NCBI GenBank assembly: GCA_049578505.1
Contig: JBAUMC010000039.1
Location: 29,498 to 93,497 of the forward strand
Reading direction: 5' to 3'
DNA from: Bacteroidota bacterium
GTDB lineage: Bacteria; Bacteroidota; Ignavibacteria; UBA10030; UBA8401
Length of the DNA stretch: 64,000 nt
Shown here piece after piece: positions 3,181 to 63,092 of the stretch (positions are counted from its first letter, which is position 1; each line of letters begins with the position of its first letter). Position numbers and translations under genes: made by a program. Below the pieces are notes generated by a model that saw only the letters and a list, made by a program, of their open reading frames with translations, had not been told where the DNA came from and searched no databases.

Positions 3181-3708
3181 ATGATTAAAAGTATCTGGAA
3201 GAAATTATTTTATTGGATCAACAAGTATCCAATCGTTTTTTCCGTGCTGGGAATTTATGCCTATTATCTTTTTACCACATTGAATTTCTTTAGAAAGTCT
3301 GCAGTCGCACACATGTCGATATTCGATTTTGTCCTTCAATATGATTCTCTCATCTGGATGTGGCTTGTGGTCTACGTCGTTTCTCGCGCCCAAACCATGA
3401 AGCAGAAATACGAAACGGACGAGTCGAACAAAAGACAAATACTCTCCGAAGTTGAAAAATCGTCGGTTGCCTCGATAGTGCTGCACAATGTAATTCGCCT
3501 TCTTCAGGATACGATTAATAACCCTCTCGCTATCATAGGTTCTACCATAGATGAGATACGCAAGCAAAATTCTTCCAACCCATCCCTCAGCCGGCAATTC
3601 GATCAAATCGAAGCGTCGCTCCATCGCATACACAATGCAATAAAGGACGTCGAAGTGTACGAATCGACGGCGCTCTTGGAGCAGTTGCATAAGCAAGTCA
3701 GTCCGTAA
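3181..3708 (+). CDS. Membrane protein with a HisKA/DHp-like H-box but no HATPase domain
   Basis: RBS AGGAGAAGG. Two N-terminal hydrophobic helices are followed by a coiled-coil and the motif SIVLHNVIRLLQDTINNPLAII, which resembles a histidine-kinase H-box. The protein ends about 50 aa later, without N/G1/G2 boxes. Confidence 0.55.
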   Translation: MIKSIWKKLFYWINKYPIVFSVLGIYAYYLFTTLNFFRKSAVAHMSIFDFVLQYDSLIWMWLVVYVVSRAQTMKQKYETDESNKRQILSEVEKSSVASIVLHNVIRLLQDTINNPLAIIGSTIDEIRKQNSSNPSLSRQFDQIEASLHRIHNAIKDVEVYESTALLEQLHKQVSP

Positions 3709-3800: not shown

Positions 3801-4247
3801 ATGAACGAAGAATCTGCTCGCAATCTTGACCAACATATGCCAGTCCCAAAACAAGAACCGGACAAAATATCCGGCAAAAAAGAAGTGATCATGCTTGTTG
3901 AAGACGAGAAGATGCTGCTGGAATTGCTGAAGTCGGTTCTCGAGGATGATGGATTTCCTGTCGTTACGGCTGCCGATGGAGAGGAAGCAATCGAAATATT
4001 TCGCGAGAAAAAAAATGAGATTGGCCTCGTGCTGACGGATATGGGATTGCCGAAACTCGGTGGGTGGGAAATGTTTCAAAAGCTTCGCGTAATCGATCCA
4101 ACAGTCAAAGTAATTCTTGCGAGTGGTTTTGTTGATCAGGAAATGAGGGTCGACGTGATGAAAAAAGGAGCAAAGGATTTTGTTCAGAAGCCGTACGTTC
4201 CTAATATGATTATAAAAAGGATACACGAAGTGCTCGACTCCGATTAG
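3801..4247 (+). CDS. Single-domain response regulator receiver (CheY-like) with a ~30 aa N-terminal extension
   Basis: Receiver motifs IMLVEDE...VLTDMGLP...KVILASGF...DFVQKPY are present. The start codon is uncertain (candidates at 3801, 3837 and 3891), and no strong SD precedes any of them. Confidence 0.8.
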   Translation: MNEESARNLDQHMPVPKQEPDKISGKKEVIMLVEDEKMLLELLKSVLEDDGFPVVTAADGEEAIEIFREKKNEIGLVLTDMGLPKLGGWEMFQKLRVIDPTVKVILASGFVDQEMRVDVMKKGAKDFVQKPYVPNMIIKRIHEVLDSD

Positions 4248-28927: not shown

Positions 28928-29362
28928 ATGCAAAAACGGGAAGCAATTATTCGGCACGTTCAAAATCTTACCTTTATCGGGAAAGCGGGTTCTAATCATT
29001 GGACCACAATGGATTCCTCGCACGGAGAAAGTTCAGCCGCTGCCACATCTCCGATGGAACTCATTCTCCTTGCTCTCGGAGGATGTACGGGAAGCGACGT
29101 GGCCATTATTCTGGAGAAAAAAAGAGCGCGTGTTTCCAAGTTCGAAATGAAGATCACCGGCGAACGTGCCGCAGAGGACCCGAAGGTGTATACCTCGATC
29201 CACATCACTTATATTTTCGAAGGGTTCAACCTCAGAGAGAAAGATATTGTCCACGCCATTGAACTTTCGATGACCAAGTACTGTTCGGTGAGCGCAATGC
29301 TCAAAAAATCTGTGGCGCTGACGTATTCGTATTCGATTGTCGGATCGGGTGGTGCGGCTTGA
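28928..29362 (+). CDS. OsmC/Ohr-family peroxiredoxin-like protein
   Basis: The OsmC fold signature with the two conserved Cys is present (LALGGCTG..., ...KYCSVS). Confidence 0.85.
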   Translation: MQKREAIIRHVQNLTFIGKAGSNHWTTMDSSHGESSAAATSPMELILLALGGCTGSDVAIILEKKRARVSKFEMKITGERAAEDPKVYTSIHITYIFEGFNLREKDIVHAIELSMTKYCSVSAMLKKSVALTYSYSIVGSGGAA

Positions 29363-29365
29363 TGA

Positions 29366-30010
29366 CTAGGCTGGTAAATTAATGTCTCGTAGCTTGATGA
29401 TTTCCTTTTCGATGCCCCGGATGTTAGTGTCAAGCTCTTGTATAACAGCTCGGTCGCTTGCGTTCAGTTTTTGTCTGGATATAATATCCGCACTGATCTT
29501 AATCGCTGCGAGGGGATTGTTAAATTCGTGGCAAATAGTAACCACGAGCTCTTTGATCGCCTCGCTTCGTTTTTGGCCGAGGAGTTTATTTTTTTCCACT
29601 TGTGCAATTTGTTTTTTCAGTTGAACTCGGTTCAAAACGTTCAACAGAGTCCGCGGGAGGACCGATTCGACAATTTCTTCCTTCACGAGAAAATCCTCGA
29701 CCCCCAGCTTCATTGCCTCCACGGCGAGCTGAAAGTCCTTCCCCGAAGCGATGAAGACGAGAGGAACATCGATTTTCAAACTTCTGATCTCTTTAGCGAG
29801 TTCTAAAGCAGTCATCTCGCTCAAATAATAATCGACGAGAACAACCGCGATAGTCAGATCGGTCTTGAGCCTTTCGATACCGCCGGCGCCGGTCTTTTCC
29901 CACGTTATTTTAAAATCGCTTCCTTGAAATTTCTTGAGTTGAGACTGCGCGGTTTTTGCGTATGAAATATCGTTGTCTATGAGTAATACGTGAATAAGAG
30001 GCTCGTTCAT
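29366..30010 (-). CDS. Receiver (REC) domain fused to a HisKA/DHp domain, lacking a HATPase_c domain
   Basis: The start at 30010 has AAGGGA 6 nt upstream. REC motifs (VLLIDND...VVLVDYYL...) are followed by the H-box ICHEFNNPLAAI, and the protein ends about 45 aa later. Confidence 0.75.
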   Translation of the reverse strand: MNEPLIHVLLIDNDISYAKTAQSQLKKFQGSDFKITWEKTGAGGIERLKTDLTIAVVLVDYYLSEMTALELAKEIRSLKIDVPLVFIASGKDFQLAVEAMKLGVEDFLVKEEIVESVLPRTLLNVLNRVQLKKQIAQVEKNKLLGQKRSEAIKELVVTICHEFNNPLAAIKISADIISRQKLNASDRAVIQELDTNIRGIEKEIIKLRDINLPA

Positions 30011-30162
30011 TCTATCCCTTGCACTAAATTTTATTGGATAAAGTAGCACAACTTTTTGTTTTAATCAACCGAACCGCGACTTTTTCAAATTTCTTGTTGA
30101 TTTTAATCCGCCGATTGTCTATAATTTACAGCCGAAAAAAGCGAATATCATGAGGAATTCCA

Positions 30163-30534
30163 ATGGCAGAAAAAAATAGCATTCTTGTTGTGGACGATGA
30201 AGATGCTTTGCGAACCGTATTAAGCAGTGAACTTGAGAGTGAGGGCTATGTAGTGGCGACCGCCGGAGATGGCGATGAAGCAATATCCGTTTTGCAGGGG
30301 AAATCGTTTGATTTAGTACTGCTCGATATTAAAATGCCGCGCGTCGACGGTTTTGAGGTCCTGCGGTTTATCAAAGAACGTTACCCAGCCACGAAGGTGA
30401 TAATGCTGACGGGTTTTGCCGACTTAAAAAATGCAATTGAGTCGAAGAAGTTGGGGGCAGAAGATTTCGTCAGCAAGCCGTACGATTTAGTCGATCTCTT
30501 AACGACGATCGAAAGAGTTCTTACCAGCGAATAA
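30163..30534 (+). CDS. Single-domain response regulator (CheY-like)
   Basis: ILVVDDE...LVLLDIKMP...KVIMLTGF...DFVSKPY. The protein is 123 aa. Confidence 0.85.
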   Translation: MAEKNSILVVDDEDALRTVLSSELESEGYVVATAGDGDEAISVLQGKSFDLVLLDIKMPRVDGFEVLRFIKERYPATKVIMLTGFADLKNAIESKKLGAEDFVSKPYDLVDLLTTIERVLTSE

Positions 30535-30576
30535 TTCCTGCCATTCCCTGCTTTTACCTTTCTCACGGGCATTGTC

Positions 30577-31956
30577 ATGGCTCGCACCTACAATATCCTT
30601 ATAGTCGACGATGAAGAGAGCGTCGTATTTCTTCTCAAGGAAGAGCTCTCGGAATTAGAGAAGTACGACGTTACAGTTGCATACGACGGCGCTGAAGCAA
30701 TCAACATTCTTCAGGGCCACCCTTTCGATGTTGTTCTTCTCGATGTGAAAATGCCTCGCGTCAGCGGGATCGAAGTCCTGAAGTACATTCGGGAACAGCA
30801 CCCGACTACGATTGTCCTTATGCTTACGAATTTTGCCGACGTCAAGACAGCAATCGAAACGATGAAGCTTGGCGCGTACGATTTTGTCAGTAAACCGTAT
30901 GAGCGGGAAGAATTGCTTGCAACGATTGACCGCGCACTCGAACTGCGCCGCCTTACGATCGACAATAAGCTCATGGAGTACGAGCTCAACCGCCAGGGGT
31001 TGGCTCGTGAGTTTATCGGGAAAAGTCCTGCAGTCCAATCCCTCATCAGCACGGCAAAAAAAATTGCCGATAGTACTGCAATCGTTCAGATTCAAGGTCC
31101 GAGCGGTACAGGTAAAGAGCTGATAGCCCATCTTATCCACACATCAAGCCCGAGAAAGAACCGCCCTTTTGTGATTGTGAACTGCGCTTCCATTCCCGAC
31201 GCTCTGCTGGAAAGCGAACTGTTCGGCCACGAGAAAGGAGCGTTCACGAACGCGTACGCGATGAAACAGGGTCTGGTCGAAGTTGCAAACGGAGGGACTC
31301 TCTTTTTGGATGAAGTCGGCGACATCAGCCCGATGATTCAGCCCAAGCTGCTCAGATTTCTCGAGACAGGGGAGTTCCGGCGGGTAGGGGGAACAAATGC
31401 GATGAAAGTCGACGTGCGTATCGTTTCCGCAACGAACAAGGATTTGCAAAAAGAGGTTGAGGCCGGCAGATTCAGAGAAGACTTATTGTATCGATTGAAT
31501 GTTGTGACCATTCGTATCCCCCCCCTGAAAGACCGCAAAGAAGATATCCCCCTTCTCATTGAGAATTTTTTGGGGAAAAAAATAAAGGGAAAAGCTCAGA
31601 AACGCCTGAGCGACGAAGCGGTGCAGGTATTGATGCGGTACGATTGGCCCGGCAACGTCCGCGAGATGGAACATGTCATCGAAGGAGCCGTCATTCTATC
31701 GCATGACGAAGTCATCACGGCAAAAGATCTGACACTGACCGCATCCTCGGGAATGCAAAATTTGAGCCCCGTTCCCATGCCGCAGAAAGAGGGTGAAGTA
31801 TTATCACTTGAGACAATGGAAAAAATGCAGATCGAACTCGTGCTGCAAAAGAATAATTACAACCGTTCAAAAACCGCCCAGTTGCTCGGCATCACTCCTA
31901 AGACGTTATATCTCAAAATTAAACGGTACGGTATAACTACCCCCACCAAAGACTAA
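30577..31956 (+). CDS. Sigma-54-dependent response regulator (NtrC/AtoC family: REC + AAA+ sigma54-activator + Fis-type HTH)
   Basis: It has REC, Walker A GPSGTGKE, the GAFTNA motif, ESELFGHEKGAFT and a C-terminal HTH (RSKTAQLLGITPKTLYLKIKRYGI). Confidence 0.9.
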   Translation: MARTYNILIVDDEESVVFLLKEELSELEKYDVTVAYDGAEAINILQGHPFDVVLLDVKMPRVSGIEVLKYIREQHPTTIVLMLTNFADVKTAIETMKLGAYDFVSKPYEREELLATIDRALELRRLTIDNKLMEYELNRQGLAREFIGKSPAVQSLISTAKKIADSTAIVQIQGPSGTGKELIAHLIHTSSPRKNRPFVIVNCASIPDALLESELFGHEKGAFTNAYAMKQGLVEVANGGTLFLDEVGDISPMIQPKLLRFLETGEFRRVGGTNAMKVDVRIVSATNKDLQKEVEAGRFREDLLYRLNVVTIRIPPLKDRKEDIPLLIENFLGKKIKGKAQKRLSDEAVQVLMRYDWPGNVREMEHVIEGAVILSHDEVITAKDLTLTASSGMQNLSPVPMPQKEGEVLSLETMEKMQIELVLQKNNYNRSKTAQLLGITPKTLYLKIKRYGITTPTKD

Positions 31957-32056: not shown

Positions 32057-32479
32057 ATGAAGAAGGGAATGATTGCACGAGGCCTGATGGCCGTTGCGGC
32101 GGCAGCTGTTATTGGGTTCACTTCCGCTGCAGCATCAGAGCCGGGAGTTTCGAGGTATGGCGATGTTGACTGGAAAAAAGCAGAGGCAAACTATGTCGCC
32201 GCTTTAAAATCGGATAATATGGGCGTTAAGCAAAGTGCGGCAAGCTATGTAGCTGAGTACAAACTTAAAGGAGCTGTGGATCCTCTCATTCAAATCCTGA
32301 AGTTTGACAAAGTAGAAAGTGCAAGGATGTCAGCGGCGTTGGCGCTTGTCACTTTAAACGATGCGCGTGGCAGAGCTGCAGTTGAAGAGGCTACTTTGTA
32401 TGACGGAAGCGACAAAGTGGTTAGATTCTGCGAGTCATTGCTGAACGCTTCGCCGAACAAGTTCAGCGCAATGGAATAA
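32057..32479 (+). CDS. Secreted HEAT/armadillo-like repeat protein (hypothetical)
   Basis: Signal peptide and RBS GAGGAGGG. A short helical-repeat pattern is present. Confidence 0.5.
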   Translation: MKKGMIARGLMAVAAAAVIGFTSAAASEPGVSRYGDVDWKKAEANYVAALKSDNMGVKQSAASYVAEYKLKGAVDPLIQILKFDKVESARMSAALALVTLNDARGRAAVEEATLYDGSDKVVRFCESLLNASPNKFSAME

Positions 32480-58950: not shown

Positions 58951-60921
58951 ATGCCGGAAAACAAGCGGGGAATCGCCTTTCAGAGCGTCTTTTCTAAGAT
59001 TTCACTTCAGGAAGGCGTCGTTGCTGGCATAGGAGTCCTTCTGTTTTTTTTAGGATTGTGGTCGGCCGCGATTCTGACGAAGCTCTTCTGCTTTATCATC
59101 ACGGGGATTGCGGCGTACTATGTACTCGATTCATTGCGCGGGAGAAGACATCCACCATCGGACAATGACTCTTCGATTCCTGCTGACTCGGAAAGTGATG
59201 ATGTAGAAAATTTTCGGACAGACAGAGCTGAGACAGGCGAAGAAGCCGTTGACGAGCAATTCGACAGAAGAAAGAGCGACATCTTTTCTGAGCATGCCAT
59301 AGCAGAAAACAGAGCGGAACTCGAAGATAAAGAAATCCGATTTGAGGAACCGGCCCAACGGGCCCACGATGCTATTGTTTACTCTCCCTCGGACTTCGTT
59401 GACGATGAGCAGGCCTTGATAGAAGGAGGCCGACAGGAACCGAGGAGTGAATTTAATTTCCTCCTGCAAAAAACCTTATCGGTAATCAAAGAGGTTGTAT
59501 TTGCCAATTCTGTCTCGTTCTTCTGGGTGAACCAGGAATCGCAGCAACTTATTCTCGAAGCCAAATTCACGGACAGCCAGGTATTCTCAACTTCGAGGAA
59601 ATTGCCTATCGGCAGCGACATTGTCAGCCAGATTGCGTTGTCCGGGAAGCCGGAGATTATGGGTCAGATTGCTGCCAATGCGGAGAGGGACATTGTTCCG
59701 TATTACGCCAGTTTGGAGGAAATAAAATCGTTTATCGGCGTTCCGGTGTTCTATCCAAGTCGGGAGGGCGAACGGCTGCCAGTTGCAGTTCTTGCGATTG
59801 ACAGTAAAGCAGATGATGCATATGGTCCGGAAACCGTTGATCTGCTTGCGAAATTTACAAAAATGCTCTCGGCAGTTCTAAAAAGTTCGACAGAGAAATA
59901 TGATCTCTTGAACGAGAGCGGAGTCTTGAAGACTGAAATGCGGTTTCGTGCTAAAGCTTTCGGCGAATCCGAGATCGCAAACATCGGGAACGCATTGGCA
60001 GAAGAAGTATCTACGCTTGTGCCGTGGGATGCTCTTGTGCTGATCCTGTTTGATGGAGCTCAGAAGCAGTGGGTGGTGGCAAACGTCAGGACGAGGCACA
60101 ACCATCGCTATGTCGTTGCGAAGCAACTTCTTGATTTTCATTCAAGCGTAGCTGGCAAAGCGATCAAGAATAATGCAGTCCAGGACATCGATGATTTATC
60201 GAAAACATCCGAACCGAGATTTTTGGTAAACGAGTCGTCGCTTGGGATGGCTCGGGTCGGCTCGTTCGTAGCAATTCCGATCGCTTCGACTAACAAGTGC
60301 TATGGTGCGCTGACTCTTGAATGTCGGGAAAAAAATTCGTACGGCTCGAAGGAAATTTCCTCGGTATCGCAATTAACGTCGATTGCAGGAATAGCTTTTG
60401 AGCTTCGCGAAGCGAACGATATCATAAAGGAATTTGTCGTCGTTGATGAAAGCACAGGGACGACATCAAAGAAATATTTCCTGCAGCGGCTTTCGGAAGA
60501 ATGGCAGCGGGCAGACGACGATGGCTCGGATGTTTCGTTATTGCTGTTTGCGATTTCGTCGCTCAACGATATAGTTGCTCGTTACGGCAGGGCTGGCAGC
60601 GAGGCGGCCGTTGCAAGAATCGCCTCGATCCTTCGTTCCAGCGTGCGCCCGTACGATGTCATCGGCCGGTTCGACCACGCGATATTTGCTGTTGTGCTGG
60701 TGAAGACGACATCCAACGACGCATATTTGTGGGCGGAGAAACTCCGGTCGGCGATCGCCAGTACCGTTGTATCATTCGAACAAAAAACATTTTCCGTGAC
60801 CGTGACCGTCGGAATCTGCGGTGCAGCCGAAGGGATGGATTCAAATGAATGTGTCTCGAATACGGTTCAGGTTTTGGAAAAGGCAAAAGAAGCCGGTGGA
60901 AATATCGTGAGAGTGTTTTAG
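58951..60921 (+). CDS. Membrane-anchored sensor with tandem GAF domains and a degenerate GGDEF domain
   Basis: Two TM helices are followed by an acidic linker and GAF-like regions. The C-terminal GGDEF fold has RFDHAIF in place of the RYGG(D/E)EF active-site motif. Confidence 0.8.
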   Translation: MPENKRGIAFQSVFSKISLQEGVVAGIGVLLFFLGLWSAAILTKLFCFIITGIAAYYVLDSLRGRRHPPSDNDSSIPADSESDDVENFRTDRAETGEEAVDEQFDRRKSDIFSEHAIAENRAELEDKEIRFEEPAQRAHDAIVYSPSDFVDDEQALIEGGRQEPRSEFNFLLQKTLSVIKEVVFANSVSFFWVNQESQQLILEAKFTDSQVFSTSRKLPIGSDIVSQIALSGKPEIMGQIAANAERDIVPYYASLEEIKSFIGVPVFYPSREGERLPVAVLAIDSKADDAYGPETVDLLAKFTKMLSAVLKSSTEKYDLLNESGVLKTEMRFRAKAFGESEIANIGNALAEEVSTLVPWDALVLILFDGAQKQWVVANVRTRHNHRYVVAKQLLDFHSSVAGKAIKNNAVQDIDDLSKTSEPRFLVNESSLGMARVGSFVAIPIASTNKCYGALTLECREKNSYGSKEISSVSQLTSIAGIAFELREANDIIKEFVVVDESTGTTSKKYFLQRLSEEWQRADDDGSDVSLLLFAISSLNDIVARYGRAGSEAAVARIASILRSSVRPYDVIGRFDHAIFAVVLVKTTSNDAYLWAEKLRSAIASTVVSFEQKTFSVTVTVGICGAAEGMDSNECVSNTVQVLEKAKEAGGNIVRVF

Positions 60922-62361: not shown

Positions 62362-62664
62362 ATGGAAAAAGCGAAACACAGCGTCGAGTTCGAATCAGAG
62401 GTTGACAAGGATGGAAAAGTTCAGTTTTCTCGTGCTGTCGGCGGTGAACTCTCTCTCCCGCGCGGGTCAAAGGTCACGGTTCGGATCGTCGGGGGCGTGC
62501 TTTCAAAAGGCTTGACGGCGCGCAATGTCTCGGATGAAGAGATCGAACGAATCGGCAGGATTCAGTTTGAAGACCGTGAACATGTCGTGAGGTTCTTATT
62601 GACCGAGGGGAAACTCTCGAACAACCGCTCCATGAGAAAACGTCTCAAAGGCCTTACAGCGTGA
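62362..62664 (+). CDS. Putative antitoxin (AbrB/MazE-like swapped-hairpin N-terminus), partner of the downstream PIN protein
   Basis: A 100 aa ORF. The N-terminal DKDGKVQFSRAVGGELSLPRGSKVTVRIV resembles SpoVT/AbrB. A 4-nt overlap with the PIN gene is typical of TA pairs. Confidence 0.55.
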   Translation: MEKAKHSVEFESEVDKDGKVQFSRAVGGELSLPRGSKVTVRIVGGVLSKGLTARNVSDEEIERIGRIQFEDREHVVRFLLTEGKLSNNRSMRKRLKGLTA

Positions 62665-63092
62665 ATGATCAAAAAATTGTTATCGACACCGACGTGCTTC
62701 TTGACCACCTCGTCCATCGCGACGGTCCTTCTTTTTTACGGAGAGCGATGAACGTCTTCTTTTGCTACACGACCGCATTTAACGCAATCGAGGCATTTTC
62801 CTTTGCCCGGTCTGACGAGGAAATTCAAGCCGTCGACGACGCAATGAGCGCAATGAAAGTTCTCGGTCTCAACGCAAAGAGTGCAAAAGTTGTCGGAAGC
62901 ATTTTTTCGAAAATCGATTCAACCAAGAAAAGAGATTTGGCAGTCTTGATCGCTGGTGTCTGCCGAGAAAGCAAACTGCCGATCGTAACGATGAATCCTC
63001 AACGATTTTCCGGCATCAAGCAATTGCGGGTCATCACGGCAGTAAAGTTAGCTCGGTACTTGTCACCGACGGAAATCATTGCCATCAAATAA
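62661..63092 (+). CDS. PIN-domain (VapC-like) ribonuclease toxin (GTG start)
   Basis: N-terminal IVIDTDVLLDHL and further acidic residues with PIN spacing are present. Confidence 0.75.
   Translation: MNDQKIVIDTDVLLDHLVHRDGPSFLRRAMNVFFCYTTAFNAIEAFSFARSDEEIQAVDDAMSAMKVLGLNAKSAKVVGSIFSKIDSTKKRDLAVLIAGVCRESKLPIVTMNPQRFSGIKQLRVITAVKLARYLSPTEIIAIK

Follow-up and report, generated by a model that had tools for sequence, protein, structure and literature searches.

Here we describe REC-DHp, a 214-residue signalling protein encoded at positions 29366-30010 (minus strand) of a 64,000-nucleotide stretch of DNA from an Ignavibacteria-lineage genome (Bacteroidota bacterium, NCBI GenBank assembly GCA_049578505.1, contig JBAUMC010000039.1), the whole of which was analysed and is referred to below as the window. 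The protein joins a receiver (REC) domain to the dimerisation and histidine-phosphotransfer (DHp) hairpin of a histidine-kinase core, and has no catalytic, ATP-binding (CA) domain. Judged from its sequence, REC-DHp is best described as a receiver-controlled histidine kinase (Rec-HK) of the LvrB type minus its ATPase domain, and it probably removes, or passes on, the phosphate of the sigma-54 activator encoded beside it. Our preferred reading, to which we assign a probability of roughly 40%, is that of a REC-gated, ATP-independent DHp that would dephosphorylate, or take phosphate back from, the activator and its stand-alone receiver paralogue. This proposal is carried by the architecture of the protein, the absence of a CA domain, the strict conservation of the histidine box (H-box) and the recurrent adjacency of the gene to that of a sigma-54 activator. 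The principal elements of the system are as follows.

29366-30010, minus strand: REC-DHp, 214 residues, a receiver-controlled histidine-kinase core without a CA (ATPase) domain (open reading frame, Pfam, homologues, AlphaFold 2 model)
29678-29989, minus strand: N-terminal receiver, REC-DHp residues 8-111, with the D60 codon at 29831-29833 and K110 present (Pfam)
29387-29662, minus strand: alpha5/alphaS signalling helix running into the DHp hairpin, residues 117-208 (model helices, profile match, conservation)
30163-30534, plus strand: stand-alone receiver, 123 residues (Pfam, E 2.5e-33)
30577-31956, plus strand: NtrC1-type sigma-54 enhancer-binding protein (the activator), REC-Sigma54_activat-HTH_8, 459 residues (Pfam, E 2.3e-68)

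The REC-DHp open reading frame (ORF) spans 29366-30049 on the minus strand, and the ATG at 30010, which is preceded 5 nt upstream by a Shine-Dalgarno-like AAGGGA, yields the 214-residue product. Pfam finds a Response_reg domain at residues 8-111 (E 5.6e-11) and a HisKA domain at residues 153-202, the latter scoring 25.8 bits, slightly below the gathering score of 26.9. The HisKA assignment is backed by precomputed PF00512 matches on most of the homologues listed, and in a profile search of the PDB the C-terminal part of the protein also matches the DHp domains of KinB and LvrB. The H-box, ICHEFNNPLAAI, contains the run C160-H161-E162-F-N164-N165-P166 (H161 codon, 29528-29530), in which HEFNNP at residues 161-166 agrees with the HisKA pattern H-E/D-x-x-T/N-P on helix 1 of the hairpin. 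An AlphaFold 2 monomer model (mean pLDDT 85.9, from an alignment of 28 family members) comprises a five-stranded REC fold and a single helix at residues 117-161, which ends in a kink at the H-box and is followed by two more helices (166-178 and 184-208). In the model the chain stops six residues past DHp helix 2, with no further domain.

A first-pass annotation of this DNA had described a receiver fused to a HisKA H-box without an ATPase domain, had argued that no hidden or frameshifted HATPase_c lies downstream, and had placed the sensing kinase elsewhere. Our searches agree with it on each of these points. Pfam returned no HATPase_c match in the REC-DHp protein, and a hidden Markov model built from 94 CA domains found no CA-like domain in a six-frame translation of the whole window, in which neither this model nor a motif screen found a kinase. 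The REC-DHp stop codon lies 3 nt from that of the convergent OsmC gene (28928-29362). Clustering of ORFs across 80 loci likewise gave no conserved kinase among the neighbours, where only housekeeping genes flank the module. On this predicted architecture, autokinase activity of REC-DHp is excluded: because the CA domain is absent, H161 could not be charged from ATP by REC-DHp itself.

A search of 5.8 billion proteins returned 1084 REC-DHp homologues at E<=0.001, the best 120 of which are nearly all 214-254 residues long and annotated simply as 'response regulator'. A genome pattern scan with one genome per species found 219 carriers, essentially all of them Ignavibacteria-type metagenome-assembled genomes (MAGs) filed under Bacteroidota, Ignavibacteriota or Chlorobi. 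From this sequence record, REC-DHp is a real and widely conserved signalling gene. Residues C160, H161, E162, N164, N165 and P166 are invariant in all 189 distinct sequences that we compared, and DHp helix 1 is invariant. The receiver is more variable: in the same census position 60 is D in 180 sequences and replaced in nine, position 13 is D in 142 and N in 38, and position 88 is T in 142 and A in 40. The family consensus of the receiver quintet is canonical. The window protein keeps D12, D60 and K110, and belongs to the minority at the other two positions, with N13 for the second acidic residue and A88 for T/S. Because the H-box never varies and the receiver signature does, the chemistry of the DHp histidine box appears to be the constrained part of the protein.

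The residue directly before the phospho-His is a cysteine in every one of these 189 sequences (C160; codon 29531-29533). In most HisKA kinases this position is occupied by S, A or T. A redox or inter-subunit role for C160 is conceivable from the sequence.

Across a divergent region of 152 bp from REC-DHp lie the stand-alone receiver and the NtrC-family activator, which Pfam identifies as the first-pass annotation had done. This divergent trio, with REC-DHp on one side and REC plus activator on the other, is present in 125 of the 129 Ignavibacteria-type loci, a count that covers genomes and metagenomic contigs with enough upstream sequence and includes one locus (L124) with a gap of 781 nt. It persists where REC-DHp is just 36-43% identical to the window protein. 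More distant CA-less REC-HisKA proteins, found using P0140 as the query, are encoded beside activators in other ways. In Candidatus Kryptonium (L161, L162, L173) the gene shares a strand with that of a REC-sigma-54 activator, which comes second, and the two overlap by 4 nt; in another Kryptoniota genome (L167) it follows ftsZ and lies 94 nt before the activator gene, also on the same strand; and in a Bacteroidota-type lineage (L165, L166, L170) it diverges from an activator gene that has genes for a hybrid kinase and a histidine-phosphotransfer (HPt) protein on its flanks. The Kryptonia activators are 56-58% identical to the window activator, with which they have a GAFT(N/D)A loop in common, and their REC-DHp partners are 33-37% identical to the window REC-DHp; for the REC-DHp of the HPt-bearing lineage the figure is 29%. 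The Kryptonia and Bacteroidota versions have no stand-alone REC.

With four arrangements at such low identity, the adjacency of REC-DHp and activator has outlived several rearrangements and deep divergence, and the adjacency at distant loci is stronger evidence than synteny within the Ignavibacteria. The link between REC-DHp and the sigma-54 activator, previously drawn from the window, is thus upheld by all four arrangements, in Ignavibacteria, Kryptonia and a Bacteroidota MAG. By sequence comparison, the shared partner of REC-DHp is the activator, and the stand-alone receiver is an Ignavibacteria-specific duplicate.

The closest solved protein is LvrB of Leptospira (PDB 8vc9, 9qqw), the prototype of receiver-controlled histidine kinases, with a Rec-DHp-CA layout, in which phosphorylation of D56 drives coiled-coil formation by alphaS and the signal covers >50 A to the kinase core at H161 (PMC13269768). 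LvrB is the only solved protein that aligns with ours over REC, linker helix and H-box (phmmer: REC-DHp 51-185 against LvrB 47-185). Both have an N-terminal REC on a long continuous alphaS helix leading to a HisKA DHp (residues 117-161 in the REC-DHp model), and in both the phospho-His is numbered H161, within an H-box of the form HE-I/F-NNPL, a type that resembles HisKA of the KinB and LvrB class. After beta5 both have K-(7 or 8 residues)-P in place of the usual KP, and the receiver Asp is D56 in LvrB and D60 in REC-DHp. The two differ in that LvrB has a CA domain, released on REC phosphorylation, and autophosphorylates, whereas REC-DHp ends after DHp helix 2. They differ also in their surroundings, since the target of LvrB is a REC-anti-sigma factor and the neighbour of REC-DHp is a sigma-54 activator. 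By homology with LvrB, and given the 45-residue helix of the model, the REC-DHp receiver would lie too far from H161 to serve as a donor or relay station, and we therefore infer that it acts as a regulatory input.

A DHp domain that lacks its CA would be left with three options. It could use water to dephosphorylate a docked receiver, take the phosphoryl group back from Asp~P onto its His, or pass phosphate forward to another receiver. In vitro, phosphatase activity towards the cognate regulator persists in domain A of EnvZ, a DHp without CA. In HisKA kinases the T or N at H+4 activates water, with the His serving as general base, giving an H-E-x-x-N phosphatase motif, and a construct of HK853 without the CA domain keeps phosphatase activity in vitro (PMC7005713). 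The HK853 and EnvZ constructs are laboratory truncations, whereas REC-DHp is natural and conserved.

We propose that REC-DHp would be a dedicated partner of the NtrC1-type activator and, in the Ignavibacteria, also of the stand-alone receiver paralogue. The protein would dimerise via its DHp hairpin, and DHp helix 1 would be where the activator receiver and the small REC dock in their phosphorylated state. There H161 and N165, the key residues of the H-E-x-x-N motif, would strip the phosphoryl group from the receiver aspartate, by water-mediated phosphatase chemistry, by reverse transfer onto H161, or by both. From H161 the phosphoryl group would be lost or, if it flows in the presumed direction, handed to the small REC as a sink. 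Phosphorylation of the protein's own N-terminal receiver, relayed via the long alphaS helix, would toggle this activity on or off. The receivers would be charged by an ATP-dependent sensor kinase or by a small-molecule phosphodonor, either of them coming from elsewhere. In the Ignavibacteria, the duplicated small receiver would make a natural sink, though it could instead be a donor. We tentatively suggest that a single function could fit all four genomic arrangements, namely that of a device, under receiver control, by which phosphate is drained from the activator or redistributed. Gated phosphatase or back-transfer activity is favoured because the Kryptonia have no intermediate receiver to act as donor, and because the Bacteroidota activator already has a hybrid kinase-HPt relay.

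Several points nonetheless weigh against this proposal, which is drawn from sequence and genomic context and which we hold with less than even confidence. Firstly, the H-E-F-N-N-P run fits phosphatase chemistry, but fits forward phosphotransfer equally. Secondly, the phosphatase activity of HisKA proteins is stimulated by the CA domain together with ADP (PMC7005713), so that a DHp without CA may show only weak activity of this kind. Thirdly, E162 is invariant despite the fact that the best-described role of a glutamate at H+1 is as general base in autophosphorylation (PMC7005713). Gating by phosphorylation of the protein's own receiver is uncertain in the window clade, given the N13 and A88 substitutions. 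Furthermore, the adjacency of REC-DHp and activator is broken in four loci (L058, L063, L081, L155). Synteny in the Ignavibacteria is by itself weak evidence, because ORF clustering over the 80 loci shows the flanking housekeeping genes (IMPDH, acyl-CoA dehydrogenase, Nif3, a Zn-ribbon protein, RNase H and RecJ) to be syntenic too. Finally, the HPt-bearing lineage may differ in function from the window protein.

Outside the family, a profile search of 1.8 billion cluster representatives identified three kinds of nearest relative. The first consists of full REC-HisKA-HATPase_c kinases. The second comprises REC-HisKA-REC-GGDEF proteins of ~550 residues and a REC-HisKA-REC protein of 384 residues (P0150, P0190, P0197, P0212, P0252), which likewise lack a CA domain and in which the H-box TAHELNQPL is conserved. 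HATPase_c was not found in P0150, P0190 and P0252 by Pfam, nor in P0197 and P0212 by eye, and from their sequences these proteins may represent fusions of His and Asp modules that lack a kinase domain. The third is a sister set of ~224-228 residues with a REC-helix-hairpin layout, in which the His is replaced by D, K, N, S or A (P0141, P0157, P0158, P0161, P0173, P0221, P0260 and P0270; loci L163 and L172). This His-less sister family has a conserved C-terminal tail, ...KEDKTVKYIKDIKMIDLS, and two of its members are encoded directly 3' of the gene for a 1872-residue PAS/GAF multi-sensor protein.

The main rival to a gated phosphatase or back-transfer enzyme is a forward relay of the Spo0F-Spo0B-Spo0A type, which we consider unlikely. 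An unlinked kinase would phosphorylate the stand-alone REC, and phosphate would then pass to H161 of a REC-DHp dimer and on to the receiver of the activator, with the N-terminal REC as gate. Such a scheme accords with one histidine and three receivers in a conserved cluster without a kinase, and with the invariance of H161 and E162. The stand-alone and activator receivers are paralogues with 56% identity and could use one docking site, and the small REC shows the extreme conservation of hub receivers. Its median identity is 77.5%, against 51% for REC-DHp, 63% for the activator, 74% for IMPDH and 79% for acyl-CoA dehydrogenase in the same genomes, and its helix 1 and alpha4-beta5-alpha5 face are nearly invariant. 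Consistent with a relay, too, is the direct fusion of CA-less REC-HisKA to a second REC in the REC-HisKA-REC-GGDEF and REC-HisKA-REC relatives. However, the stand-alone REC is absent from the Kryptonia and Bacteroidota versions, and an intermediate donor is therefore not a conserved part of the module. In helix 1 the activator receiver also varies far more than the small REC does, while DHp helix 1 shows no variation. Where a hybrid kinase and an HPt serve the activator, a second phosphotransferase is unneeded; since a complete His-Asp-His-Asp relay is already there in L165, L166 and L170, the REC-DHp of these loci would most simply be a regulator or phosphatase. The first-pass annotation had envisaged a multi-step relay feeding the activator. 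Its connection to the activator has held, while the forward direction is possible and not favoured, on account of the lineage with a hybrid kinase and an HPt.

The same annotation had taken Spo0B and ChpT as examples of a DHp-only architecture, a comparison that is not supported. Spo0B (Bacillus) and ChpT (Caulobacter) are dimeric, with a DHp-like four-helix bundle and a phosphorylatable His; they do not autophosphorylate from ATP, and shuttle phosphate between receivers. In REC-DHp the His and the DHp are present and the architecture excludes autokinase activity; phosphotransfer by it would complete the likeness. Spo0B and ChpT, however, possess a C-terminal pseudo-ATPase (pseudo-CA) domain and no receiver, whereas REC-DHp has no domain after the hairpin and does have a receiver. 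Neither protein appeared among the PDB profile matches of the C-terminal part of REC-DHp at E<=5, a lack of sequence similarity that counts against the forward relay, and LvrB is the closest solved relative. Kinase-less His proteins upstream of REC-sigma-54 activators are also found in the LuxU-LuxO and ShkA-ShpA-TacA systems. LuxU and ShpA differ from REC-DHp in being monomeric HPt proteins without a phosphatase motif, whereas the His of REC-DHp stands in a HisKA DHp that is predicted to dimerise, within an H-E-x-x-N motif and under a receiver. An HPt relay occurs together with REC-DHp in L165 and L170.

Next, REC-DHp might be one subunit of a split or heterodimeric kinase, with H161 phosphorylated in trans by a full kinase, such as a Rec-HK paralogue, or by a separate ATPase, and would then be the true phosphodonor for the activator. 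We regard this as improbable. The invariance of H161 and E162 would suit it, given the part played by E at H+1 in autophosphorylation (PMC7005713). So would L169 (GCA_043803945.1), in which the CA-less gene is divergent from that of a full REC-HisKA-HATPase_c kinase of 367 residues, and L161, where the CA-less gene is placed as a cognate kinase gene would be, with a 4-nt overlap into the activator gene. Nevertheless, a CA domain is encoded neither in the window nor among the conserved neighbours, and the loci kept from the genome scan, apparently one for each genome, contain no second gene with the same H-box pattern. It is also established that DHp heterodimers are rare.

Slightly less plausible still is a non-catalytic, receiver-gated adaptor, whose DHp hairpin would simply dimerise and bind the activator receiver as an anti- or co-activator, with no phosphoryl chemistry. 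Dimerisation and protein-protein interaction were indeed the roles proposed for such response regulators by Galperin et al. 2018 (PMC5847659), and the sister family retains the REC-helix-hairpin after loss of the His. Conservation of C-H-E-x-N-N-P in 189 of 189 sequences, above that of the receiver phospho-Asp, is hard to explain without catalysis. Lastly, the idea of a truncated pseudogene or assembly artefact of a REC-HisKA-HATPase_c kinase, prompted by nearest homologues outside the family that do have a CA domain (P0203, P0449-P0456), can be dismissed with near certainty, given a length kept in more than 1000 clusters and 219 genomes, 3' genes that differ by lineage (OsmC in the window, Nif3 elsewhere) and no CA remnant in any frame.

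Proteins of this general kind have been catalogued before. P2CS lists 'HisKA, no HATPase' and 'possible incomplete histidine kinase' classes, and Galperin et al. 2018, who discuss REC-(PAS/GAF)-HisKA proteins in archaea, considered a phosphoacceptor or phosphatase role possible and noted that no such regulator had been studied (PMC5847659). These proteins have in common with REC-DHp a conserved His in HisKA and no ATPase. They differ in being archaeal and mostly PAS/GAF-containing, whereas the REC-DHp family is bacterial (Fibrobacteres-Chlorobi-Bacteroidetes, FCB, group) and consists of REC and DHp only; a recurrent sigma-54 activator partner is not described for them. In full-text literature searches we found no characterised bacterial REC-HisKA protein without CA, no account of this module and no study of two-component systems in the Ignavibacteria. 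What is new here is a natural CA-less Rec-HK derivative with a defined sigma-54 activator partner; the architecture class itself is already catalogued. The finding merits experiment but is no categorical surprise.

Turning to the partners themselves, the activator has Aquifex NtrC1 (4l4u, 1ny5) and NtrC4 (3dzd) as its best PDB matches. In its sigma-54 contact loop (approximately residues 221-226), GAFTNA stands in place of GAFTGA. The GAFTNA variant is present in 44 of 58 orthologues, just two of which carry GAFTGA, and the Kryptonia orthologues have GAFTDA. The alpha4-beta5-alpha5 face of the stand-alone REC is very similar to that of the activator receiver, with which, on sequence grounds, it could form a heterodimer. 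In NCBIfam its best family matches are AtoC and NtrC receivers, although no family-level model reaches cutoff for REC-DHp, the stand-alone REC or the activator. The matches listed in the homologue search for the stand-alone REC, aimed at outgroup loci with a full kinase where REC-DHp would be, are all at least 81% identical. Its sequence is conserved to the level of central metabolic enzymes and is 100% identical in L001, L002 and L004. The FATGUY motif of intermediary receivers (PMC9981736) was considered as a marker and set aside as not diagnostic, the stand-alone REC carrying an NtrC1/DctD-like LTGFAD instead.

The divergent intergenic region contains two back-to-back promoter-like sites of the sigma-70 type.

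30011-30162: divergent intergenic region, 152 bp, with both promoter-like sites (scan and alignment)
30097-30125, plus strand: promoter-like TTGATT-17-TATAAT, directed towards the REC-activator operon (scan)
30068-30063 and 30045-30040, minus strand: promoter-like TTGATT-17-TACTTT, directed towards REC-DHp (read by eye)

Both promoter-like blocks are conserved in an alignment of 12 close loci, and the -35 block, AAAATCAAC, is present in 54 of 73 intergenic regions. The sigma-54 promoters that had been suggested nearby were not found. Matches to TGGCAC-N5-TTGCW with at most two mismatches number 24 in the window against 25 expected, none of them intergenic near the module, and across the 80 loci no -24/-12 element is conserved beside it. 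No protein with an RpoN box is encoded in the window. The sigma-54 scan did pick up a recurrent match, TGGGCCGCGGATTGCT and close variants, on the minus strand ~3.2-3.7 kb downstream of the REC-DHp start (6.4 kb in L051) in L031, L034, L046, L049, L051, L052, L054, L057, L060-L063, L068 and L080. Its position is conserved in many of these loci, which are distant from the window clade; the region is not shared with the window, nor does it lie beside the window's gene, and the match may not be a promoter.

Elsewhere in the window, a 175-residue ORF at 3181-3708 (plus strand) has an N-terminal hydrophobic segment suggestive of one or two membrane helices, and a hairpin that Pfam matches weakly to HisKA (E 0.0056), in which 'DTINNPLAIIGS' aligns with 'HEFNNPLAAIKIS' and an Asp stands at the His position. 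It is followed immediately by a 148-residue stand-alone receiver (3801-4247, plus strand; Response_reg E 9e-26), and by sequence the two genes form a possible second kinase-less pair. In L168 the gene divergent from REC-DHp encodes a 664-residue GAF-GGDEF protein instead of REC plus activator. A protein of similar size (~670 residues) is encoded at that position in L058 and L063, and the small genes beside it resemble window positions 62362-63092. The window itself encodes a 656-residue GGDEF protein with a hydrophobic N-terminus at 58951-60921 (plus strand). Between the activator and acyl-CoA dehydrogenase genes lies that of a 140-residue HEAT-repeat protein with an apparent signal peptide (32057-32479, plus strand), which occurs only in the window's close clade of 12 loci and has no NCBIfam match.

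Two-component signalling is usually told as a story of kinase and regulator, with HPt proteins, Spo0B and ChpT as the sole kinase-less His components. Proteins with 'HisKA without HATPase' have been counted in censuses, none being characterised (PMC5847659). The REC-DHp family is a clean test case for them, being minimal, with a strict catalytic motif and a recurrent sigma-54 partner, and its solved relative LvrB supplies a mechanism for receiver control. Establishing its role, whether as gated phosphatase, reversible shuttle or relay, would tell us what natural CA-less DHp proteins do, and bears on how the sigma-54 activators of the FCB group integrate two signals. More speculatively, CA-less REC-DHp proteins may, at somewhat longer odds than our central proposal, represent a distinct and widespread class: an ATP-independent, receiver-gated phosphoryl 'valve', acting as phosphatase or reversible His shuttle for NtrC1-type activators in Ignavibacteria, Kryptonia and some Bacteroidota, with the duplicate receiver of the Ignavibacteria as its sink or donor. 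If true, such a valve would give these activators a second signal-controlled input that is independent of the sensor kinase.

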